Source of the DNA: a virus
Taxonomy: Duplodnaviria; Heunggongvirae; Uroviricota; Caudoviricetes
Direction: 5' to 3' (one strand)
DNA length: 10,228 nt
IMG/VR virus record: IMGVR_UViG_2923302340_000004
Span: 1-10,228 of that record
The notes under the pieces are model-generated. The model made no database searches. It was not told the origin of the DNA and was given only the letters and a program-made list of their open reading frames with translations. The position numbers and the translations under genes were made by a program. Below are positions 1-10,228 of the stretch, piece by piece (the first letter of the stretch is position 1; each line of letters opens with the position of its first letter).

Positions 1-1428
1 GTGAAATTATTCAGATTCTCTAAAGTAAAAATTGCAGAACTGCCAACGCCGGAACATGGACAGGTCGAATATGGTGATACGGAGGTTAACGGGCTGCGTG
101 TCCGTGTAGGTTCGTCTGGTGTGAAAAGTTTCTGCATTTCCCGTAAGCGTAACGGAAAATTTATTCGTGCAACGCTGGGGCGTTTTCCTGATCTGAGCGT
201 GGATAATGCCAGGGCTAAAGCTATGGAACTCCTTGGCGAAGTCGCCACAACGGGGATAAATCCGAACATAGCAAAGCGCACTAACAACAAGGCCATGATA
301 ACGCTGAGTGAGGCGATTGACGCCTACGTAAAAAATCGTGGCCACCGCCTGAAACCCGCCACAGAAAAACAGTACCGCAGCATATTACAGAATTATTCCG
401 GTGACTGGATGGCCCATACCCTCGCCAGTATTTCCCGCGAACGGGTGGAACAACGGCATAAGGCCATCACTGATGGGGCTGTATGGTTCGGTGCTGATAA
501 AACCACGTTACGGGCTGGGGTTGGTACAGGAAGCAAGGCACAGGCCGATTTATGGGCGCGTGCGCTACGTGCTGTGTGTCGGTTTGCGCATGATCATTAC
601 CGTGATGATGCGGGTAATACTCTTTTACCGGATCCGCCGACTCTGGTACTGAGCACCAAGCGCCAGTGGCACGGAACGGTAAGAAAAACGGAACGTATCC
701 GCCTGCATGATTTTCCCCGCTGGTTTGCTGCTGTAGCTGCTGTGCGCGACCAGGGCGAACAGGAAAGGGATGATATAGCGGTGACGGTATGCGATGCCGT
801 GGAAATGGCGCTTTTTACCGGACTGAGGAAATCAGAAATTTTTGGCCTTACGTGGGATCGAGTGAATATGGGCGGTCGTTTTTTCTGGATAGACACCACG
901 AAAAACGGGGATCCGCTCGAATTACCGATTACTGATACGTTGCGGGAAATGTTCCACCGCCGACTGAAAATAAAAAACGCTGATGATGTTCTGCTGTTTC
1001 CTGGTGTGAAGGGAGTGATTCAGGAAACACGGCACATCATAGACCGGATAAGCGCGGCTACTGTTCCAGAGTCGAACGATGAAATGCTCTCCCCTGTACC
1101 ATTCAAATGGCACGATGCACGCCGGACGTTCGGAACGGTTGCCGAACTGGTGGGCGTGGGCAATTACATCCTCAAGCGCCTGATGAATCACCGTACTATG
1201 CGAAGTGCTGACGTAACGCAGGGGTATTTACATTTTGGTGCTGATGAACTGCTGGAGCCAGCGTCACGGATAGAACGGGCAATTCTGGAACATGCCGGGC
1301 TGGTGGAGAGTAAAAAATCTATCGATGCGCAATTGCTTTCCGCACTGGAGAGTATGAGTGACAGTGAGAAACGCGCATTACTATTTAGTATCGTTAATTC
1401 AAATGGTGATTTGAATGTCAGAAAATAA
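1..1428 (+). CDS. int: Tyrosine site-specific integrase, P4-type (N-terminal arm-binding domain plus catalytic core)
   Basis: 475-aa ORF. N-terminus (KIAELPTPEHGQVEYGDTEVNGLRVRVGSSGVKSFCISRKRNGKFIRATLG...INP) matches the arm-type DNA-binding domain pattern of P4-family integrases. C-terminal core has the H-x-x-R box (WHDARRTFGT) and a terminal Tyr motif (DVTQGYLHF). Starts with GTG at the window edge, so the true start could be at or just upstream of position 1. Has a ~50-aa C-terminal extension relative to typical members. Confidence 0.9.
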   Translation: MKLFRFSKVKIAELPTPEHGQVEYGDTEVNGLRVRVGSSGVKSFCISRKRNGKFIRATLGRFPDLSVDNARAKAMELLGEVATTGINPNIAKRTNNKAMITLSEAIDAYVKNRGHRLKPATEKQYRSILQNYSGDWMAHTLASISRERVEQRHKAITDGAVWFGADKTTLRAGVGTGSKAQADLWARALRAVCRFAHDHYRDDAGNTLLPDPPTLVLSTKRQWHGTVRKTERIRLHDFPRWFAAVAAVRDQGEQERDDIAVTVCDAVEMALFTGLRKSEIFGLTWDRVNMGGRFFWIDTTKNGDPLELPITDTLREMFHRRLKIKNADDVLLFPGVKGVIQETRHIIDRISAATVPESNDEMLSPVPFKWHDARRTFGTVAELVGVGNYILKRLMNHRTMRSADVTQGYLHFGADELLEPASRIERAILEHAGLVESKKSIDAQLLSALESMSDSEKRALLFSIVNSNGDLNVRK

Positions 1429-2101
1429 AATCATTGCTGCAATAGAATTTGACCATAATGATGCGAAGGATATGAATACTATTGCAGATTATATTAGAGA
1501 TGAACTGGCGTCTTCTTTTGTAAAAAAAACGATATGCGATATGGCAAATATCACACCATCTAAAATGTCTCTGGAGGAGAGATTATCATTATCGTCAGAG
1601 ATAGAAAATAAGGATTTAAAGGTTAATATTTCTGTATGTGCCGGGTATGGAGATGATTTTGATAAAAAATTTAATAGTGCATATTCAGAATTCAATGATA
1701 TTTTGAAAGCTGCCATTATATTTGAAGTTCTTGGTTTCAACAGACTTGCAGATCAGTTACGTGAAAGATATGCGATTTTAGTGTCGGAGAATTTATTAAA
1801 ATCAGTACGTGATATAGCTAATGTAAAGAAAATTATCAGTGAAGACCGTAGTAAAGCAAAGAAAGGAAAAACAAACAGGCATAAATCAACAGCGTTATCT
1901 ATAGCTTGTAACACTTGGAAAAAATACCCTAATGCCAGTTTACCCGGGCTATCCGCAGAGATATACGCGCATTTACGCAATAAATGGAATGATGTCCCTG
2001 TAGTTGGGACTATAGAGAGATGGCTTAAGGAGTCGGGGATGAATCCAAAATCCCCGCAAAAAAACAGGGATTTTAAGTTAGTTATTGGAGACAAAGAATA
2101 A
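1415..2101 (+). CDS. Hypothetical protein, AT-rich accessory (cargo) gene between int and alpA
   Basis: 228-aa ORF. ATG at 1415 is preceded by GGTGA and overlaps the integrase stop by 14 nt. The gene is visibly AT-rich (roughly one-third GC by eye) against ~50% GC flanks. No motif I can confidently assign; C-terminal third is basic (KKGKTNRHK...) and could be nucleic-acid binding. Confidence 0.6.
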   Translation: MSENKIIAAIEFDHNDAKDMNTIADYIRDELASSFVKKTICDMANITPSKMSLEERLSLSSEIENKDLKVNISVCAGYGDDFDKKFNSAYSEFNDILKAAIIFEVLGFNRLADQLRERYAILVSENLLKSVRDIANVKKIISEDRSKAKKGKTNRHKSTALSIACNTWKKYPNASLPGLSAEIYAHLRNKWNDVPVVGTIERWLKESGMNPKSPQKNRDFKLVIGDKE

Positions 2102-2233: not shown

Positions 2234-2242
2234 GTGATACTC

Positions 2243-2431
2243 ATGCATTTAGAAAAGATGACCCGCAAAGAAGCTGCCGAGCATTTGGGGGTAAGTGTCC
2301 AGACTCTTGCTAACTGGGCGTGTACTGGCAAGGTAAAAATCCCTTTTCATAAGCTGGGGCGCAAAGTGCTGTATATGCGCACTGATCTCGATGCTTATCT
2401 TGCATCCACTCGCAGAACGCAGACGGTGTAA
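2243..2431 (+). CDS. alpA: AlpA-family / excisionase-like helix-turn-helix DNA-binding protein
   Basis: Short protein with the typical HTH signature MTRKEAAEHLGVSVQTLANWACTGKVKIPFHKLGRKVLYMRTDLDAYL (compare AlpA/HTH_17 pattern: hydrophobic-LGVS-x-T-hydrophobic-x-x-W ... G-R-x-hydrophobic-x-hydrophobic-x-x-x-L-x-x-W/Y-L). Located directly after int and a cargo gene, as in CP4-57-type islands. Start ambiguous: GTG 2234, ATG 2243 (GGTGA upstream) or ATG 2258. Confidence 0.8.
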   Translation: MHLEKMTRKEAAEHLGVSVQTLANWACTGKVKIPFHKLGRKVLYMRTDLDAYLASTRRTQTV

Positions 2432-2541
2432 GGGGGAGTGATGGCACATAAAACAAAGGCGACCGCAGAGGGCCGCCAGTGGCATAACACTAAACTTGAG
2501 CATATCCAGAATACCAGGTTGTTGGCTGGTGGGCAATGCAA

Positions 2542-2715
2542 TCAGTCTGGTTCAGTTCGTTGCCATACCTGCAATGGGCGCGTTTCCCTGTACTCTTTAA
2601 GGAATTGCTCAAGGGCAAAAGCACATGGCGCGAATCTTTCTGATTCATGCTCTATCTTTCTGCGCCGTCTTTTCCGTGCCGGTGATAATGTTTTGGTCAA
2701 TTCTTTATCGGTCAT
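2542..2715 (-). CDS. Small basic hypothetical protein (uncertain; may be non-coding)
   Basis: Minus-strand ORF downstream of the RHH gene, reading MTDKELTKTLSPARKRRRRKIEHESERFAPCAFALEQFLKEYRETRPLQVWQRTEPD. AGGA lies 8 nt upstream of the internal ATG; the alternative ATG at 2730 has no SD. Many rare Arg codons (AGA, CGG, AGG). A same-region + strand frame is also open, so the coding strand is not settled. Confidence 0.3.
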   Translation of the reverse strand: MTDKELTKTLSPARKRRRRKIEHESERFAPCAFALEQFLKEYRETRPLQVWQRTEPD

Positions 2716-2772
2716 TGTGTTGTCCTGCATAGCAATGCGCCGTAGTTACTCACACCACGGCGCTGGTGATGG

Positions 2773-2952
2773 TTACTCCTGCTCTTTGGCCTTGCGGCGC
2801 TGGCGGCGTTTGATCTCGCCTTTAACGGCAGTAACTATAAATTGCGCCTTGCTTTCACCTTCATCTAAATTTTTTTCTAAGTCTGCAACAACATCATGCG
2901 GGAATCTGGCATTTAACTGTTGCGACTTATTATTTGTTGAACCTGTTGCCAT
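2773..2952 (-). CDS. Ribbon-helix-helix (Arc/MetJ/CopG-like) small DNA-binding protein, putative transcriptional repressor
   Basis: 59-aa product MATGSTNNKSQQLNARFPHDVVADLEKNLDEGESKAQFIVTAVKGEIKRRQRRKAKEQE. Layout is beta-strand (QQLNARFP), helix A, G-x-S turn (GES), helix B, basic tail, which is the classical RHH pattern. ATG at 2952-2950 is preceded by a strong SD (GAGAGGA) 7 nt upstream. The longer ORF-track version (to 3126) has an implausible N-terminal extension covering the promoter. Confidence 0.6.
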   Translation of the reverse strand: MATGSTNNKSQQLNARFPHDVVADLEKNLDEGESKAQFIVTAVKGEIKRRQRRKAKEQE

Positions 2953-3142
2953 TACTGAATCCTCTCTAAGTTGGTGCGATTCAGTATACACAAAAAAAAT
3001 TTCAGAGAAAGGCTTGAAGTGCGATTCACTTTCTGATAGGTTAAAAACGAATGGTGCGATGCACCAAGCAACAACGCCCCGCAGTGGTGGCACACATGCA
3101 GGGCGTCTAACCACCAACGATAGCAACAGTATCGAGGCAGCT
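2953..3142. promoter_or_regulatory. Divergent control region between the RHH gene (-) and the icd-like gene (+), with repeated GTGCGAT operator-like motifs
   Basis: GGTGCGATTCAG at 2973-2984, AGTGCGATTCAC at 3018-3029, and the palindromic GGTGCGATGCACC at 3053-3065. A -10-like TATACT (minus strand, plus coordinates 2983-2988) overlaps the first repeat, just upstream of the RHH SD. Confidence 0.4.
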
Positions 3143-3346
3143 ATGAGAAATTATACCAGACACCCGCAAGGGCGGGACTCGTACAACCTGAATAAATACA
3201 TCTGGCGTTTTATCGCCCTGAGCACGGCACAACCGCGCGTGATTACCATTGAGGCCACCAGCGAACAGGAAGCGCGTCAGCAATCTCCGGCTGGCTGCGT
3301 GATGGTATTCGCCGCCCGTATTCGTCAGGGGGTGTGCCATGCCTGA
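3143..3346 (+). CDS. Icd-like small protein (host cell division inhibitor Icd-like family), tentative
   Basis: 67-aa product MRNYTRHPQGRDSYNLNKYIWRFIALSTAQPRVITIEATSEQEARQQSPAGCVMVFAARIRQGVCHA. The YIW-F-A ... IEA-SE-EAR ... FAAR pattern resembles the short Icd-like proteins annotated in P4-like elements. GAGG lies 7 nt upstream of ATG 3143. The upstream in-frame extension of the ORF track (from 2438) looks non-coding. Confidence 0.55.
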   Translation: MRNYTRHPQGRDSYNLNKYIWRFIALSTAQPRVITIEATSEQEARQQSPAGCVMVFAARIRQGVCHA

Positions 3347-3659
3347 TATGTCAAATTACCAGTACCTGATTAATCCGCATTTTAACTGTGAGCATGATAT
3401 TGCTAAAAAGGTTTATTCCGCTGCTGATGAGGCTACTGACAATATATCAATGGCTGTTGCGTCAATTGGTAGCCTGATGTGGCATGCGTCAGAAAATGAG
3501 GACTATGACGAAAAGGCCATGCGCATTGATATGGGTAATATCGGTTTGTTACTGGCAATGCTTGGGCGGTTTGATATTTCGTTACGGTGCACCATTGAAA
3601 ATGCCACAGATGCATTAAATGCCATAAAGAAAGCGAATACTGATTCAAATCGGGGATAA
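3339..3659 (+). CDS. Hypothetical protein
   Basis: 106-aa ORF. Its ATG overlaps the icd-like stop (ATGCCTGA), suggesting translational coupling. A G-rich SD-like stretch lies upstream. Acidic protein with no recognisable motif. Confidence 0.55.
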   Translation: MPDMSNYQYLINPHFNCEHDIAKKVYSAADEATDNISMAVASIGSLMWHASENEDYDEKAMRIDMGNIGLLLAMLGRFDISLRCTIENATDALNAIKKANTDSNRG

Positions 3660-3665
3660 ATAATC

Positions 3666-3965
3666 ATGAGAACATATTTATCTGGCTTGACTGCCAGCGG
3701 TTATGCACACCCCAAAATTATCCCCGGCGCTATTTATCTGGATAAGAACGGTAACAGAGTAACGGTAAAAGAACTGATGTTTGACCGTGTGTATTTTATT
3801 CGTGATGGCTATTCATTTCATAGTTCGCTGAACGTGGAGATCTTTATTAGCAGATTCCGGCGGGAAATCCCGACTTCCAGAAATAACCATGTGTCACGTG
3901 TGGATGTGGATAAAAAACTGCAGGAACTGAAAAACATGATTGCCGCGTGGAGAGAGCCGAAATGA
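3666..3965 (+). CDS. Hypothetical protein (small, precedes the primase)
   Basis: 99-aa ORF. GGGGA SD lies 9 nt upstream of ATG 3666. Its stop TGA (3963-3965) overlaps the primase ATG (3962) as ATGA. No motif confidently assigned. Confidence 0.55.
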   Translation: MRTYLSGLTASGYAHPKIIPGAIYLDKNGNRVTVKELMFDRVYFIRDGYSFHSSLNVEIFISRFRREIPTSRNNHVSRVDVDKKLQELKNMIAAWREPK

Positions 3966-6085
3966 AAAAAGCGCCAAATTTAAAACACCAGCCGCGTGAC
4001 AAAATGACGGAAGTCATCATTTTTGCGGGTAGTGATGCGTGGGCACATGCGAAGCAGTGGCAGGAACAGGACGGGCGACTGGCTGGCGATAACGTGCCTC
4101 CTGTCTGGCTTGGAGAGCAACAACTTGCCGAACTGGACAACCTGCAAATCGTACCGGACGGACGCTATCGCGTGCGTCTCTATCAGGCGGGGTTATTGCG
4201 TCCGGGGCTTGTTAATACCATCGGGCAGAAACTGGCAGCGGCAGGTGTCAGGGATGCTGATTATTACCCTGAAGGAATGCACAGCCAGAAACGGGAGAAC
4301 TGGCGCGAATATCTGGAACGTGAACGGGCAGAGCAGGCGGAAAAGAAAAAGGTAGTTGAACTGCCTGTAAAGAAAAAAGAGCCATGCTATCAGGATGATG
4401 AATTAAAGCCCCGCGTTGAAAGTCGCGTCGATGGTGTTTTCTGGGTAACGCCCAAAGTGGATAAGCAGTCAGGCGAAATTATCCGGCCTGAGACGTGGTT
4501 ATGTTCTCCGCTTGAACTACTGGGAACGGGGACGATCGGTAAAGAGCATTACCGCGTGATGCGCTGGAAAAAATTAGCAAACCATGAAGTCATCACAATG
4601 GCGATCCCGTGTGGTGGCATTGGCGACCGTGACGGCTGGCGGTTGCTTAAAGATCACGGGCTGAACGTGACAACAAACGGCAAATACAGGGCTATCCTGG
4701 CTGACTGGATGCAGTTAAGCGGAAGCCATGAGGAATGGCAGCTAAGCACAACAACGGGCTGGCATTTTGGCGCGTATATCATGCCGGACGGCTCAATCAT
4801 TGGTGATTCTGAAAAACCGATCCTGTTTACCGGAAAAAGTGCCGCTGTTAATGGCTATTCGGTTGCGGGTACGGCGGAGGGCTGGCGCGACTGCGTGGCG
4901 CGGCTGGCTGGTGGCAATCCGTCCATGATGCTGGGTGTTGCCACGTCACTGGCAGCACCTTTGATTGGCCTTGTTGGTGCTGACGGCTTCGGGGTACATC
5001 TTTTCGAACAGTCATCGGCAGGGAAAACCACCACGCAGAACATCGCATCCAGTTTATGGGGAGAGCCGGACGCACAACGGCTGACCTGGTACGGCACAGC
5101 GTTAGGTATCGCTAACGAGGCAGAGGCGCACAACGACGGGCTGTTACCCCTGGATGAAATAGGCCAGGCCGGAAACGCGCGGGAGGTGTCCACGTCAGCC
5201 TATACGTTGTTTAACGGTTCCGGGAAATTACAGGGGGCGAAGGACGGCGGCAACCGGGAGATAAAACACTGGCGCACGGTGGCAATCAGCACCGGAGAAA
5301 TGGACGTTGAGACATTCCTCAAAACGGAGGGGATAAAAGTCAAAGCGGGGCAGCTTGTCCGCCTGCTTAACGTTCCGATGGAAAAAGCCACGCACTTTCA
5401 CGAATACAGCACCGGAAAGGCGCACGCAGACGCGTTAAAGGATGCCTGGACAGAAAATCACGGGGCAGCGGGTCGTGAGTGGGTTAAATGGCTGGCAGGC
5501 CACCAGCAGGAGGCAAAGGATACGGTAAGGGAATGCCGCGAACGGTGGCGCAACCTGATACCGGAGAGCTACGGCGAGCAGGTCCACCGCGTGGGTGAGC
5601 GTTTCGCCATACTGGAGGCCGCGCTTGTGCTTTCCGGTCATGTAACTGGCTGGGCCGCGCAGGAATGCCGGGACGCAATACAGCATAACTTTAATGCCTG
5701 GGTGAAGGAGTTCGGCACGGGTAACAGGGAATTTAAACAGATGGTTGAACAGGCTGAGGCGTTTTTGTCGTCGTTCGGGTTCAGTCGATACCTTCCTTAC
5801 CCAAACAGTGATGAACGTGATTTACCGATTAAAGACCTTGCCGGATACAGAAAGGGGAGTATCAGAAATGAAGATGATGAGTTCCGTTTTTACACGTTTC
5901 CTCATGTGTTTGAGGGGGAGATCGCACAGGGATTTAACCCGTCCCACTTTGCCCGCGCGTTGAGTGCTGCCGGAATGCTGGAAGCGGGTAACGATCGCCG
6001 TTACAAGAAAAAGGCTCTCGGCAAAATTGGGGGGAAGCAGCATGTTTTTTACGTGCTGATGTTCCAGCCTGAGGCAGAAGATTAA
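3962..6085 (+). CDS. Replication protein: primase/helicase-like with a central P-loop NTPase domain (PICI Pri-Rep / P4 alpha-like role)
   Basis: ~708-aa ORF. ATG 3962 is preceded by GAGAG and overlaps the upstream stop; the ORF-track start is a GTG at 3947. Walker A-like FEQSSAGKTTTQ and Walker B-like GLLPLDEIGQ lie in the middle of the protein. Its size and position immediately upstream of an iteron array are typical of satellite/plasmid primase-helicases (DUF927-like). The family name is from memory. Confidence 0.8.
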   Translation: MKKAPNLKHQPRDKMTEVIIFAGSDAWAHAKQWQEQDGRLAGDNVPPVWLGEQQLAELDNLQIVPDGRYRVRLYQAGLLRPGLVNTIGQKLAAAGVRDADYYPEGMHSQKRENWREYLERERAEQAEKKKVVELPVKKKEPCYQDDELKPRVESRVDGVFWVTPKVDKQSGEIIRPETWLCSPLELLGTGTIGKEHYRVMRWKKLANHEVITMAIPCGGIGDRDGWRLLKDHGLNVTTNGKYRAILADWMQLSGSHEEWQLSTTTGWHFGAYIMPDGSIIGDSEKPILFTGKSAAVNGYSVAGTAEGWRDCVARLAGGNPSMMLGVATSLAAPLIGLVGADGFGVHLFEQSSAGKTTTQNIASSLWGEPDAQRLTWYGTALGIANEAEAHNDGLLPLDEIGQAGNAREVSTSAYTLFNGSGKLQGAKDGGNREIKHWRTVAISTGEMDVETFLKTEGIKVKAGQLVRLLNVPMEKATHFHEYSTGKAHADALKDAWTENHGAAGREWVKWLAGHQQEAKDTVRECRERWRNLIPESYGEQVHRVGERFAILEAALVLSGHVTGWAAQECRDAIQHNFNAWVKEFGTGNREFKQMVEQAEAFLSSFGFSRYLPYPNSDERDLPIKDLAGYRKGSIRNEDDEFRFYTFPHVFEGEIAQGFNPSHFARALSAAGMLEAGNDRRYKKKALGKIGGKQHVFYVLMFQPEAED

Positions 6086-6116
6086 CCCCCTGTGTGAGGT
6101 GAAAAGTTGCGTGTTA

Positions 6117-6424
6117 TGCGGGTTACTATGTGTATAAGTGCATTAACTGCATGAATAAAAAGGAAATCAATAACCCGCACGTAACCCGCAAAACGGCAGT
6201 TATAACCCGCAAAAGTGCGATTATAACCCGCAGATGAATAACAGGAAGTGACAGCAAACAGCCACGCGTAACCCGCAGAAAAAACCCCGTTTGCGGGTTA
6301 TTTTGAGCATTTTGCGGGTTACGCCACGGCTAAACAGTAAACAGTTAATTTTGTAATGTATTGATATTAAGGAATAAAAAATACTTAGCAAGCGAAGATA
6401 ACCCGCTAACCCGCATAACCCGCA
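6117..6424. repeat. Iteron array, putative origin of replication of the element
   Basis: At least 11 copies of the 9-bp motif TAACCCGCA in both orientations. Forward copies at 6171, 6182, 6203, 6224, 6269, 6407 and 6416, plus variant TAACCCGCT at 6399. Reverse copies TGCGGGTTA at 6117, 6292 and 6313. Several spacings are 11 or 21 bp (helical phasing). An AT-rich stretch (about 6330-6395) and TATATATATA (about 6433-6442) lie within and beside the array. Located directly 3' of the primase gene. Confidence 0.7.
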
Positions 6425-6463
6425 CTGTTTTGTATATATATACGAAAAATTGAGATCTGAACT

Positions 6464-6706
6464 ATGAAGGCAAACCGCAAACAACCACACTACCGCGCTA
6501 TTGACCTTACAGAGCACTGGCTGAGAGTGGCGATAAAAATCATCGACCGAAACACGGGGGAAGGATATGCAAAAGCACATCCCGAACTGATAAGCGCATT
6601 CATGACAACGGCAGCTGCAAACTTTGCCACGTTGACAGAACGGGAGATTGCCGAAGCGGAACAGGTGACAACCATCAACGTTAAAACCGGAGAGCAGATA
6701 GCATGA
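6464..6706 (+). CDS. Hypothetical protein
   Basis: 80-aa ORF immediately after the iteron region. Its stop overlaps the SSB-like start (ATGA). Weak SD; function unknown. Confidence 0.45.
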   Translation: MKANRKQPHYRAIDLTEHWLRVAIKIIDRNTGEGYAKAHPELISAFMTTAAANFATLTEREIAEAEQVTTINVKTGEQIA

Positions 6707-7125
6707 CAGCACAGATAGCGGCTTACGGACGGCTGGTGGCTGACCCGCAGTTAAAGACCACCAGCAAGGGTACACAAATGGCGATGGCTAGTATGGCGGT
6801 CCCCCTTCCGTGCAGCCAGGCAGATGACGGAACGGCGATGATGTGGTTATCCGTCCTGGCGTTTGGCAGACAGGCCGACGCACTGGCAAAACACCACAAA
6901 GGCGAACTGGTGAGCGTGGCGGGTAACATGCAGGTAAGCCAGTGGACAGGCCAGAACGGCGAAACGCGGCAGGGCTGGCAGGTTATCGCAGACAGCGTGA
7001 TCAGTGCGCGAACAGCGCGACCGGGCGGCAAAAAAGGCCAGCAGGGGCAGGCCACTGACGCATTGAACAGGGCAAAACAACAGTCGGGGAATGATGATCC
7101 GTACGGCGATAATATACCGTTTTAA
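6703..7125 (+). CDS. ssb: Single-stranded DNA-binding protein (SSB-like, short form)
   Basis: 140 aa. OB-fold region aligns by eye to E. coli SSB: GRLVADPQLK...MAMASMAV against GNLGQDPEVR...VANITLAT, W..V.AFG..A..LAKHHKGELVSVAGNMQVSQWTGQNGETRQ against [43 protein letters not shown]. Gly/Gln-rich linker and acidic C-terminal tail DDPYGDNIPF (SSB ends in DDDIPF). GGAGAG SD lies 8 nt upstream. Confidence 0.75.
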   Translation: MTAQIAAYGRLVADPQLKTTSKGTQMAMASMAVPLPCSQADDGTAMMWLSVLAFGRQADALAKHHKGELVSVAGNMQVSQWTGQNGETRQGWQVIADSVISARTARPGGKKGQQGQATDALNRAKQQSGNDDPYGDNIPF

Positions 7126-7142
7126 ATTCTGCAAACAAAAAG

Positions 7143-7171
7143 ATGCCGGAAAAAAATAGATTTTCCGGCAT
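7143..7171. terminator. Perfect 11-bp stem-loop (ATGCCGGAAAA / TTTTCCGGCAT, 7-nt loop) after ssb; possible terminator or RNA structure
   Basis: Inverted repeat at 7143-7153 and 7161-7171, 18 nt after the ssb stop. There is no U-tract 3' of the stem on the + strand (the T-run is inside the stem); a T-rich run follows on the - strand. The terminator call is therefore weak. Confidence 0.3.
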
Positions 7172-7336
7172 GCTACATAAATCCCGACCAAAGGAAGTAA
7201 ATACATTAACACGAATTATCAGCACTGAAGTTGTTACGGCATATTTTATACAACATTGCACTTGGTTGCATGTATTTGCATAGCAGACATCGGTAATAGA
7301 ATATATTCACAATTATTTGTAATGAATGTAAAGAGG

Positions 7337-8383
7337 ATGAGTATGGTTGATTTATATTCGCCTACACAGCTTGTGCAGGTGGCTAATGCTGAAGATGTGC
7401 AAAAAAAATTAAATGCGTTGTTTACCAGTTTGTTTTTCACTCGCTCGGTAATGTTTGAATCGAGAGACATTATTCTTGATACGATCGACGATCCAAATAT
7501 CCCGATCGCGGCGTTTTGCTCTCCTATGGTGGGCAGTAAAGTTTCACGAGATGAGGGATACGAATCAAAAACAATTCGTCCAGGTTATATGAAGCCGAAA
7601 AGCAGCATTGATCCAAATAAGTTAGCTGTGCGCCCTGCTGGTGTGTCACCTGAGCAATACAATGCTTTTGGGGCGCGTAATATTAAAGTTAAACAGGCGA
7701 TTGTAAATCAGGCTAAAGCTATTCGTGCACGTATTGAATGGCTTGCTGTTCAGGCAATCACAACGGGGAAAAATATCATTGAGGGCGATGGTATTGAACG
7801 TTATGAGCTGGACTGGAATATAAAACCACAAAATATCATCACTCAGTCTGGCGGTACTGAGTGGTCAGGTAAGGATAAAGAAACTTTTGATCCAAATGAT
7901 GATATTGAGAGCTACGCAGAATTTAGTGAGGGCGTCACTAATATCATCATTATGGGTGGTAATGTATGGAAGAAATACCGTTCATTCAGAGCGATAAAAG
8001 AGGCTTTGGATACCCGTCGTGGCTCTAATTCCGAACTGGAAACGGCCCTTAAAGACCTTGGTGATTCGGTGAGTTTTAAAGGGTATATGGGCGATGTTGC
8101 GATTGTTGTTTACAGCGGGCGTTATACCGACGAGGACGGAACTGAAAAATATTTCCTTGATCCTGATTTGATGGTGCTTGGCAATACGGCTCTTCAGGGG
8201 ATTGTCGCTTATGGCGGTATTCAGGATCCGGAGCTAATCCGGATGGGGCTGACTAAAGCCGAACTTGCACCGAAAAACTATATTGTGCCTGGTGATCCGG
8301 CTATTGAATATGTGCAGACACATTCAGCACCACAGCCAATACCGGCCCGCATCAATCGTTTTGTTACCGTTCGCATTGGCTAA
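7337..8383 (+). CDS. Major capsid protein, lambda gpE family
   Basis: Extensive collinear similarity to lambda gpE as I recall it: MSM start, then NIITQSGGTEWSGKDKETFDPNDDIESYA, LDTRRGSNSELETALKDLG, YMGDVAIVVYSG, MVLGNT, GDPAIEYVQTHSAP against lambda NITQSGGTEWSKRDKSTYDPTDDIEAYA, LDTRRGSNSELETAVKDLG, MYGDVAIVVYSG, MVLGNT, GDPAREFTMIQSAP. SD AAGAGGA lies at 7331-7337; the start is ATG 7337 or, with better spacing, ATG 7343. The ORF-track start at 7256 is an artefactual extension. Confidence 0.9.
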   Translation: MSMVDLYSPTQLVQVANAEDVQKKLNALFTSLFFTRSVMFESRDIILDTIDDPNIPIAAFCSPMVGSKVSRDEGYESKTIRPGYMKPKSSIDPNKLAVRPAGVSPEQYNAFGARNIKVKQAIVNQAKAIRARIEWLAVQAITTGKNIIEGDGIERYELDWNIKPQNIITQSGGTEWSGKDKETFDPNDDIESYAEFSEGVTNIIIMGGNVWKKYRSFRAIKEALDTRRGSNSELETALKDLGDSVSFKGYMGDVAIVVYSGRYTDEDGTEKYFLDPDLMVLGNTALQGIVAYGGIQDPELIRMGLTKAELAPKNYIVPGDPAIEYVQTHSAPQPIPARINRFVTVRIG

Positions 8384-8392
8384 GGGGGAGCA

Positions 8393-8734
8393 ATGGCTAC
8401 TCATTACACTGAACTCATGTCTGGCACTGAAGCACTGGTTACTACGCTGGGGATATTTTCAGCCAATAAAGGGGTAATACCTGCGTTTACGCCACTGATG
8501 CAGGAAGATGCAACTGGTGCGCTAGTGGTATGGGATGGAACGAGCGCAGGCAAAGCGGTTTATGTTTCCGCTGTACAAATCGACACAGCGAAAAAAACAC
8601 AGGCACAGGTTTATAAGACAGGTGTTTTAAATGTTGATGCTCTGAACTGGCCTGAGTCTGTAAAAGAACTGTCGGCAAAGGTTGCCGCGTTTGTTGGCTC
8701 AGGTATTTCTGTTCAGCCGCTGGCTCGTGTGTAA
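8393..8734 (+). CDS. Head decoration protein, lambda gpD family
   Basis: 113 aa. PAFTPLMQEDATGALVVWDGTSAGKAVYVSAVQ...YKTGVLNVDALNWPE...AAFVGSGISVQ aligns by eye with lambda gpD [32 protein letters not shown]...YKSGTFRYEDVLWPE...TAFAGTAISIV. Strong SD TAAGGGGGAG is coupled to the capsid gene stop. Confidence 0.8.
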   Translation: MATHYTELMSGTEALVTTLGIFSANKGVIPAFTPLMQEDATGALVVWDGTSAGKAVYVSAVQIDTAKKTQAQVYKTGVLNVDALNWPESVKELSAKVAAFVGSGISVQPLARV

Positions 8735-8745
8735 AGGGGGATACA

Positions 8746-9129
8746 ATGCAGAATCATTACAATGACCTTAAGCCAATTGCCGAAATGATGTATCCGGATC
8801 CAGCAGTAGAGGAATTAAAGGCTATTGCTGACAAAATGCGTTTAAGTGAACGCCTTGTTGATATGAATCAGGTGATGGAACTTACTACCCTTAGCCGTCG
8901 CACATTGCTAAACCTTGAGGCTCGCGGAGAGTTCCCCGAACGCGTACAGGTTACGGAAGGGCGTAAGGCCTGGTATTTAAGTGAAGTGATCGACTGGATA
9001 AACAATATTCCTCGAGCTTCTGAATATTGCCGCGTACCTGTCCCAAAAAAGCCAGATGCGGCGCTATGCCTCAAGATTGAGCGTGTACGCCGCAATGCAT
9101 GGGATGGTCGCTATAAGCTGATTGGTTGA
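8746..9129 (+). CDS. Second AlpA-like / excisionase-type HTH protein with N- and C-terminal extensions
   Basis: 127 aa. Central segment VDMNQVMELTTLSRRTLLNLEARGEFPERVQVTEGRKAWYLSEVIDWINN matches the AlpA/HTH_17 signature (TGLSRSTIYRL...G.FP.P...G.R...W...E...W). SD TAAAGGGGGA is coupled to the gpD-like stop. Lies immediately upstream of the cos site. Confidence 0.65.
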   Translation: MQNHYNDLKPIAEMMYPDPAVEELKAIADKMRLSERLVDMNQVMELTTLSRRTLLNLEARGEFPERVQVTEGRKAWYLSEVIDWINNIPRASEYCRVPVPKKPDAALCLKIERVRRNAWDGRYKLIG

Positions 9130-9182
9130 TGAAATTAGGGCCCGTTCTGGCTGGCGGGTCCTTTCCGGCGATCCGGTAGGCT

Positions 9183-9230
9183 ACGGGGCGGCGACCTTGC
9201 GGATTTTCGCTATTTATGAGCCTTTTCGGG
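9183..9230. other. cos site: lambda-type cosN (12-nt cohesive-end sequence GGGCGGCGACCT at 9186-9197) with flanking sequence, followed by a divergent cosB-like region
   Basis: ACGGGGCGGCGACCTTGCGGATTTTCGCTATTTATGAGCCTTTTCGGG is near-identical over ~35 nt to the lambda left end GGGCGGCGACCTCGCGGGTTTTCGCTATTTATGAAAATTTTCCGG (from memory). It sits ~135-150 nt upstream of the Nu1-like gene, as in lambda. Sequence beyond ~9220 diverges from lambda cosB. Confidence 0.75.
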
Positions 9231-9330
9231 TTGGTGGTGGTGGTTTTGTTTTTCGCTCTATCTCTATGAATAAAAAGGGAAAGATAACACCAACACACCA
9301 ACCTGAAACCTTAACTAAGTGGGGATATTG

Positions 9331-9873
9331 ATGAAATCGCACCTGATGAACAAAAAAACTATGGCGCAAAGCTGCCGCGTAAGTGCGACAGCGTTCGACA
9401 AGTGGGGAGTAACTCCCGTTGAGCGTAAAGGCCGTGAGGCGTTTTATGATGTTGCTAGCGTGATAGACAATAGGGTTAACAATGCAATTAACCAGCTTAC
9501 AAACGACAAAGGCGAGATTGATGATGATGAACTTTTACGCGTAAGAATCAGATTAATGACGGCCCAGGCGGAAGCGCAGGAACTTAAAAACGAGCGCGAA
9601 CGCGGCGAGGTGATTGATACAAAGTTTTGCATCTACGCGATTTCAAAACTAGCGAGTCAGATTTCATCAATCATGGACAGCCTCCCGCTCACAATGCAAA
9701 GGCGCTTTCCCGATATAAAGCCGTATATGCTGGATGAACTAAAAAGGGAAATAGCCAAAGCATGTAACGCATGTGCAAGACTTGACGAAAACCTGCCACA
9801 GATACTGGCTGATTACCTGATGGAAACTACCGGAAACGCGCCTGAGAAGTTGCTAGAGAACAAAGGCGAGTAA
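9331..9873 (+). CDS. Terminase small subunit, lambda Nu1 family (satellite TerS / packaging-redirection candidate)
   Basis: RLMTAQAEAQELKNERERGEVIDTKFCIYAISKLASQISSIMDSLPLTMQRRFPDI matches lambda Nu1 RLTRAQADAQELKNARDSAEVVETAFCTFVLSRIAGEIASILDGLPLSVQRRFPEL. The N-terminus MNKKTMAQ... corresponds to the Nu1 wHTH start MEVNKKQLAD. GGGGA SD precedes ATG 9331; alternative ATG at 9346; the ORF-track start is GTG 9319. Confidence 0.85.
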   Translation: MKSHLMNKKTMAQSCRVSATAFDKWGVTPVERKGREAFYDVASVIDNRVNNAINQLTNDKGEIDDDELLRVRIRLMTAQAEAQELKNERERGEVIDTKFCIYAISKLASQISSIMDSLPLTMQRRFPDIKPYMLDELKREIAKACNACARLDENLPQILADYLMETTGNAPEKLLENKGE

Positions 9874-9946
9874 CCGCCGCCCCGTAACGGGCCATAATTC
9901 CAGGAAGGACCCGACGACACCAGGCTATCAGAACGATGAGGGCACA

Positions 9947-10228
9947 ATGACTGAAGCCGAACTACTGGGATTAATCCGCCGCGTCGTCGGAATCAGCCAG
10001 CAGCATGACGAACAGGCCACACAGCCGGACAGCGTGACCGCTGAAAATTATGTGCGTGTTGTTGCTGAGGTGATGCGCCGTGATGGTATTGAGCTTAACG
10101 GCGTGGATATGCGCAACATACGAACAAGAGTCCTTGAGTTGCTGGCATACCGTCGCCGTTCTCAACAACGGAGGGAGAGCGCGAAAAATACTTACCAGTG
10201 GAAGAAGCCGGAACGGTTGCGGCGGTAG
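9947..10228 (+). CDS. Hypothetical small basic protein downstream of TerS
   Basis: 93-aa ORF with GAGGG SD 6 nt upstream of ATG 9947; stop TAG at 10226-10228 is the last codon of the window. Arg-rich C-terminus. No similarity I can recognise to the lambda gpA N-terminus. Confidence 0.45.
   Translation: MTEAELLGLIRRVVGISQQHDEQATQPDSVTAENYVRVVAEVMRRDGIELNGVDMRNIRTRVLELLAYRRRSQQRRESAKNTYQWKKPERLRR

Follow-up and report, generated by a model that had tools for sequence, protein, structure and literature searches.

A lambda Nu1-type small terminase beside the cos site of an Escherichia coli PICI: probable redirection of packaging toward the element's own cos

TerS is described as a core component of PICIs, 'responsible for redirecting the packaging', in the SatelliteFinder paper (PMC10085698), and the study that described Gram-negative PICI architecture likewise names it as their packaging-redirection component (PMC6092414). 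In the pac-type staphylococcal PICIs (SaPIs; Ubeda 2007, reviewed in PMC6739421), a satellite TerS working with the helper TerL confers specificity for satellite DNA. The E. coli protein considered below would share this arrangement but belongs to an unrelated TerS family and is associated with cos rather than headful (pac) packaging; the SaPI protein, moreover, acts with a separate inhibitor, Ppi, and no Ppi-like gene was identified in the E. coli island. A different solution is found in E. coli islands of the EcCICFT073 type, which encode RppA, RppB or RppC (PMC6739421; PDB 6HLK and 6HN7). Rpp, of 144-153 aa, is thought to derive from TerS and works by heterodimerising with it (PMC6739421); it lacks the C-terminal TerL-binding region of TerS and requires the helper TerS to reach TerL (PMC6739421, PMC9026076).

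Islands carrying a Nu1-type terS have also been reported. EcCIIHE3034 is listed and drawn with the gene, which is only annotated there and in EcCI18098; inducing the resident prophages mobilised neither of these terS-bearing islands, for which no helper is known (PMC6092414). The model helper-embedded PICI, 11capE, lacks terS (PMC10111431). A literature search found no experimental test of a Nu1-type PICI TerS, and the literature on EcCIMP1, lateral transduction and O157 prophages held nothing on such a protein. The feature described here belongs to a class of PICI modules that is already known, is closely related to a published island and does not amount to a discovery; what is added is its cos anatomy, an N15-type DNA-binding domain (DBD) together with a matching R3' sequence, the allelism of terS and rpp, and prevalence figures.

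The stretch of DNA that was analysed (the window; 10,228 nucleotides) is a one-directional gene array of integrase, alpA, primase and late module, from an element of ~11 kb with its own att site and no tail or lysis genes. Because this gene order is that of Gram-negative PICIs, the window can be taken as most of an 11-kb PICI of the EcCIIHE3034/EcCICFT073 family, which bears out the earlier note in calling the element a satellite. Its features are as follows.

1-1428, plus strand: tyrosine integrase of 475 aa, from profile matches
1415-2101, plus strand: open reading frame of 228 aa in the accessory slot between int and alpA, overlapping the stop of the integrase gene
2234-2431, plus strand: alpA
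2438-3346, plus strand: open reading frame of 302 aa, listed mechanically and probably not a gene
3947-6085, plus strand: DUF927 primase
6703-7125, plus strand: SSB
7334-8383, plus strand: lambda gpE-like major capsid protein, homolog of c1499 of EcCICFT073
8393-8734, plus strand: gpD-like decoration protein, homolog of c1500 of EcCICFT073
8746-9129, plus strand: second AlpA-like HTH protein, 127 aa, between the decoration gene and cos
9331-9873, plus strand: terS, a Nu1-family small terminase of 180 aa, from profile matches, BLASTP and dN/dS
9874-9912, minus strand: cos2 remnant directly after the terS stop, with cosQ GGGTCCT at 9906-9912 and the first 8 of the 12 nt of cosN
9947-10228, plus strand: open reading frame of 93 aa (phrog_1561), which follows terS- and rpp-type cassettes alike, from synteny in related loci

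The int-alpA accessory slot of PICIs is often home to defence genes; the 228-aa frame found there had no Pfam or PADLOC match. Across 2438-3346, annotated relatives carry a short minus-strand gene of the YlcI/YnfO family and a plus-strand gene for an Icd-like inhibitor of cell division. The 93-aa frame is not an Rpp; it matched no solved structure and nothing in Pfam or PADLOC. The island is a mosaic, in which an int/att module (1-2430; 475-aa integrase, tRNA-Ile/mug, as in E. coli 1EC213) adjoins a right part (2428-10228) matched at 99.2% by the E. coli TCM3e1 island, which lies at cspD-clpS and has a different integrase of 412 aa.

The closest published counterpart is EcCIIHE3034 (NC_017628: 920272-930825, at cspD-clpS), whose TerS is 86% identical to that of the window. 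With it and EcCI18098 (PMC6092414) the window shares the order capsid, decoration, (hypothetical), cos1, terS and 93-aa frame. It differs from EcCIIHE3034 in its integrase and att site, which is of the tRNA-Ile/mug type, and in carrying an AlpA-like gene where that island has a c1501-like one. The 127-aa AlpA-like protein, which may act as a late regulator or assist at cos by binding it, is conserved in Enterobacter and Citrobacter terS islands, while EcCICFT073/IHE3034-type islands encode the unrelated c1501-like protein of 137 aa. A further difference is the loss of most of the inverted cos2 from the window. A full inverted cos2 is kept in EcCICFT073 (L007 48230-48340) and EcCIIHE3034 (L023 10030-10115); compared with the latter, the window has lost 182 bp in a deletion one of whose ends falls within cosN, and with them the rest of cosN and the helper-phage-type cosB.

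The terS frame opens with ATG at 9331, preceded by a Shine-Dalgarno sequence (GGGGA, 9321-9325), and ends with TAA at 9871-9873. Its N-terminus agrees with those of its homologs, and in near-identical elements the RefSeq entry 'terminase small subunit' has the same boundaries (WP_023063570.1, E. coli TCM3e1 island). The protein matches Pfam Phage_Nu1 (PF07471) with 84.9 bits against a cutoff of 30 (E 6.3e-24) and PHROG 57, 'terminase small subunit', over residues 1-173 (E 2e-53). BLASTP aligned its residues 6-166 with lambda Nu1 (36.5% identity, E 1e-34) and its residues 5-163 with N15 gp1 (48% identity). Because these alignments begin at residue 5 or 6 and reach as far as 166, homology covers the N-terminal DNA-binding, central core and C-terminal regions, and the claim of a complete Nu1 homolog made earlier from the bare sequence holds nearly end to end. 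The frame encodes a genuine, intact lambda-Nu1-type small terminase of an E. coli PICI. No sigma-70-like promoter was found near terS, an absence that fits read-through from the operon upstream without positively supporting it. The protein was divided as follows.

Residues ~1-55: N15-type DBD, putatively a wHTH
Residues ~73-127: Nu1 core
Residues ~128-167: putative TerL-binding region
Residues 168-180: tail

In family, in domain order and in the position of the gene directly after cos, the window TerS resembles N15 gp1 and lambda gpNu1. The core is its best-conserved part relative to phage TerS proteins (31 of 55 residues identical to lambda, 34 of 55 to PhiR5_1), and this half of the earlier assignment of a wHTH N-terminus and a conserved central region stands. 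The evidence for the wHTH is weaker. A profile of the TerS family matched the lambda TerS fragment 6HN7_B over residues 6-49 at a weak E value of 0.0056, and 1J9I and 7LW0 at E ~0.8, while a PDB search with the single sequence matched nothing relevant. An AF2 model built from an 18-sequence alignment, of low confidence (mean pLDDT 54), has a strand-helix-helix-hairpin-helix order that fits a wHTH.

The two ends of the protein have opposite affinities. Over residues 1-50, 29 of 49 positions (59%) are identical to N15 gp1, the closest DBD, against only 13-15 of 47 (~30%) for DBDs of the lambda, 21-like and PhiR5_1 types. The C-terminal 40 residues reverse this pattern, with 20 of 39 identical to PhiR5_1 (51%), 15 of 39 to lambda and 13 of 39 to N15 (33%). 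Among 50,697 phage records, this type of DBD occurred only in N15, one Enterobacter phage, Pseudomonas D3/MD8-like phages and one Alteromonas phage. The DBD is accordingly N15/D3-like and not of the type of the common E. coli lambdoid phages, whereas the C-terminal half resembles E. coli lambdoid TerS. Across the same records the full protein is <60% identical to every phage TerS and its C-terminal domain at most 55% identical to any, which leaves compatibility with any particular gpA unproven. The last ~13 residues (TTGNAPEKLLENKGE), which form a PICI-specific tail of the pattern TTGNxPEKLLxxKGE, have no counterpart in any phage TerS compared, the N15 and lambda homologs included.

The DBD hardly varies within the PICI lineage, unlike the C-terminus: Enterobacter PICI TerS shares 36 of 50 DBD residues with the window protein and only 10 of 39 at the C-terminus. 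Variation at the C-terminus showed no simple correlation with variation in cosN, since the islands of 1EC213 and of locus L016 share a C-terminus and differ in cosN. A PICI of the same architecture in E. coli HNSQ2209 (L026 3728-4312) encodes a 194-aa TerS that is 68% identical to PhiR5_1 overall; it combines a DBD of the lambda/21/PhiR5_1 type and a 21-like cosB (upstream 300 bp) with a tail that is nevertheless of the PICI type (...YLMETTGNVPEKLRQQKGE). In that island, DBD and cosB seem to have been replaced together, with the satellite-specific C-terminus left in place.

The earlier note had also supposed that the element has a cos of its own, and one lies within the window, immediately upstream of terS, with cosQ and cosN identical to those of lambda and a cosB that is not lambda's.

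9156-9162, plus strand: cosQ GGGTCCT, identical to the lambda right end in heptamer and in spacing (-30 to -24 from cosN)
9186-9197, plus strand: cosN GGGCGGCGACCT, a 12-nt cohesive end identical to lambda and the sole exact match in the window
9229-9245, plus strand: proposed TerS site R3', GGTTGGTGGTGGTGGTT, in cosB at bp 44-60 from the first nucleotide of cosN
9286-9303, minus strand: proposed R2', an inverted R3' core that reads AACACCAACACACCAACC on the plus strand

The order cosQ, cosN, cosB and then terS is that of lambda cos and Nu1, and the terS start codon lies at bp 146 from the first nucleotide of cosN, compared with 191 in lambda and 89 in N15. The segment 9151-9220, which spans cosQ, cosN and their flanks, is ~90% identical to lambda, and the likeness ends exactly where lambda cosB begins. 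The cosN sequence is kept upstream of terS in the islands of TCM3e1, 1EC213 and EcCIIHE3034 (L001, L012 and L023) and at loci L013, L015 and L008-L011. R3' sits where R3 lies in lambda and in N15, and its motif is over-represented relative to shuffled controls, none of which contained it. PICIs of E. coli, Enterobacter and Citrobacter keep its core (GGTGGTGG..TTGTTGTT) ahead of terS. This core resembles N15 R3 (GAGGTTGTTGTTT), which was mapped at bp 48-60 from cosN (PMC9026076). R2' is supported by an inverted repeat of 13 nt with 92% complementarity (9224-9236 and 9296-9308), and its segment CAATACACCAACC is conserved in relatives. The centres of R3' and R2' are ~57 bp apart, a spacing that resembles the ~54 bp between lambda R3 and R2; no IHF site (WATCAANNNNTTR, allowing at most 2 mismatches) was found between them. 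Position, repetition and conservation define R3' and R2' as putative TerS-binding sites, and the cosB of the window is best described as non-lambda, with an N15-like R3 and an inverted copy of it. The N15-type DBD of TerS would then match the N15-like R3 sequence in the adjoining cosB.

Comparison of cos sites, for which the lambdoid prophages of CFT073 served as a source of helper-type TerS and cos sequences, yielded two further observations. In PhiR5_1 (L024 1950-2190) the spacer between cosQ and cosN (gggtcctttccggcatatggacccgttacg) is identical to that in cos1 of EcCICFT073 (L007 47515-47570) and of EcCIIHE3034 (L023 9170-9215), which makes PhiR5_1-like phages candidate helpers of these two islands; the window's own spacer is closer to that of lambda than to that of PhiR5_1. 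In cos1 of EcCICFT073 (L007 47606-47624), the proposed Rpp site, R3-PICI (ACCACCACC), lies at bp 55-63. Its reverse complement is the R3' core of the terS type (GGTGGTGGT), and the two sites are almost equally far from cosN even though Rpp and PICI TerS have DBDs of different types.

Taken together, these features make it probable that the PICI TerS binds its private cosB and recruits a helper TerL of the gpA type, which cuts cosN and terminates at cosQ. A lambdoid cos helper would induce the island, leading to its excision and replication. The putative N15-type wHTH would bind R3', probably together with the inverted R2', and the Nu1-like core and C-terminal domain would recruit the TerL that the satellite lacks. 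The helper TerL would nick the lambda-identical cosN, and the lambda-identical cosQ would be used for termination. Packaging would start at cos1, and terS would come first on the linear molecule, just as Nu1 does in lambda. Island concatemers would enter heads built by the helper, ~4 x 11 kb being expected to fill a lambda-size head; this copy number follows from the packaging limits of lambda and from the report that a model PICI of E. coli is packaged in concatemers of phage length, ~45 kb (PMC10111431). Competition for TerL would at the same time interfere with the helper. All of the sequence-level predictions of this reading that were tested came out positive, and to that extent it is supported.

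The relation of terS to rpp bears directly on this proposal. EcCICFT073, located in the CFT073 genome at L007 37931 to ~48900, has the order capsid c1499, decoration c1500, a 137-aa protein, cos1, a 144-aa gene, inverted cos2 and the 93-aa frame. The 144-aa product is identified as RppA because it matches the RppC crystal structure 6HLK at 5e-31, and terS of the window occupies exactly this rppA slot, with cos1 upstream in both. Moreover, a terS allele that is 84% identical (P0054), found on 659 contigs, is carried by a backbone resembling EcCICFT073 and inserted like it at roxA-phoQ, O157:H7 being among the examples. The shared slot and the occurrence of this allele on such a backbone identify terS and rpp as alternative cassettes. 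The two share a slot next to a PICI cos, lambda-type cosQ and cosN, a private cosB, a TerS-related DBD (putatively a wHTH in the window protein) and a presumed role in redirecting the helper terminase. They differ in that Rpp lacks the Nu1 core as well as the C-terminal region, has a lambda-type DBD and uses the helper TerS as a bridge, whereas the window TerS is a full Nu1 homolog with an N15-type DBD that presumably binds TerL itself.

The window protein was rejected as an Rpp on grounds of its length of 180 aa, its full C-terminal region and its failure to match known Rpp proteins: neither it nor its family profile matched the RppC structure 6HLK, and BLASTP against RppA returned no match at E<=10.

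In the main rival reading, a full-length TerS would poison in the manner of Rpp, by co-assembling with helper Nu1 into mixed oligomers that ignore the helper cosB and recognise that of the PICI, in which case helper Nu1 would be required. The occupation of the rpp slot, the TerS ancestry proposed for Rpp together with its heterodimerisation, and the fact that the central self-association core is the best-conserved part of the protein all accord with such a role. It is nonetheless unlikely, because the C-terminal region is complete and under purifying selection and because Rpp contacts TerS through a DBD-proximal region that is of a different, N15 type here. Since the C-terminal region is complete, helper TerS would not be needed as a bridge to TerL.

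Direct recruitment of the helper TerL by the PICI TerS can be extended, tentatively, to the cassettes as a class. Under this possible joint reading, terS and rpp would be interchangeable specificity cassettes between cos1 and an inverted cos2, and terS would be a specificity-swapped Nu1 and the dominant strategy in E. coli. It would unite an N15-type DBD and a matching private cosB with a satellite-specific, TerL-binding C-terminus that bears an extra tail. The island might then use helper gpA without helper Nu1 and outcompete Nu1, and DBD and cosB might be swappable as a unit, as in HNSQ2209.

The terS family was found in 762-792 of 5426 complete E. coli genomes (~14%), including Nissle 1917 and O157:H7, with an intact frame in 762 of them, while rppA/B was present in 97-110 of the same genomes (~2%), a count that covers rppA and rppB, since RppC has probably diverged too far in DNA sequence. 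When E. coli terS alleles were compared in pairs, dN/dS was 0.15-0.24 overall, 0.05-0.19 for the DBD and 0.12-0.29 for the C-terminal domain; the low values in all three domains indicate that terS is maintained by purifying selection.

Outside E. coli, TerS homologs of 56% identity occur in Enterobacter and Citrobacter, in helper-embedded PICIs (PMC10111431) with the same layout of cos and terS. The window island differs from these in occupying a chromosomal tRNA-type site rather than the inside of a prophage. The Enterobacter and Citrobacter islands (L008-L011 and L020-L022) are inserted in the major capsid gene of a lambdoid prophage, and downstream of them lie a truncated Phage_cap_E gene and then FI, head-tail and tail genes; some of these islands have a different cosN (GGGCGGCAGCGT).

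These data weigh against regarding terS and cos as an inert relic with no role in spread, left over from a degraded lambdoid or N15-like prophage or from a captured phage fragment. That view could appeal to the published terS-type islands that were not mobilised (PMC6092414), to the partial deletion of cos2 in the window and to the capture of helper late genes by PICIs (PMC10111431). It is made highly improbable by the hundreds of intact frames, by purifying selection in every domain, by conservation of the layout and of the R3' motif across genera, and by the standing of this TerS as a lineage of its own, with less than 60% identity to any phage TerS, unlike a recent capture.

No TerL was found in the window among its open reading frames or by Pfam and PHROG searches, in agreement with the earlier remark that no large-terminase partner is encoded there. 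The adjacent, overlapping TerL gene that follows the small subunit in lambda (Nu1-A) and N15 (1-2) is absent at terS, which marks the protein as a satellite TerS and not part of a phage terminase operon. Close relatives extend this result beyond the end of the window. The right 3 kb of the window are 99.2% identical to the TCM3e1 island between cspD/yljB and clpS, where the 93-aa frame is followed by ~1 kb of non-coding DNA and then clpS, and the whole window matches the 1EC213 island at 98% identity over 93% of its length, that island ending at tRNA-Ile/mug, 0.84 kb past the 93-aa frame. TerL was absent downstream of terS in TCM3e1, in 1EC213 and in nine further related loci. The large-terminase gene right after the window that the earlier note named as counter-evidence is thus missing in these relatives. 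That the window belongs to a self-sufficient phage or capsid-forming PICI with TerL outside it, as its gpE- and gpD-like head proteins and TerS might suggest, can be dismissed as having almost no probability, and is refuted for the close relatives examined, because the element measures only ~11 kb and complete relatives end 0.8-1 kb past the window without TerL, portal, protease, connector, tail or lysis genes, whereas capsid-forming PICIs have their own TerL, portal, protease and head-tail connectors.

Redirection of the helper TerL by a satellite TerS to the element's own cos would have implications beyond this island. The terS-type cos PICIs, found in probiotic (Nissle 1917) and pathogenic (O157:H7) strains, are much commoner in E. 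coli than the Rpp-type islands that underlie current mechanistic understanding. If the satellite TerS does act with helper gpA on a private cosB, it would offer lambda-type terminases an orthogonal specificity module that needs no design. Such a module could serve in PICI-based DNA delivery and in work on the way Nu1 places gpA at cosN. The use of one TerL by a helper and several PICIs in the same cell, with no cross-packaging, would likewise be accounted for.
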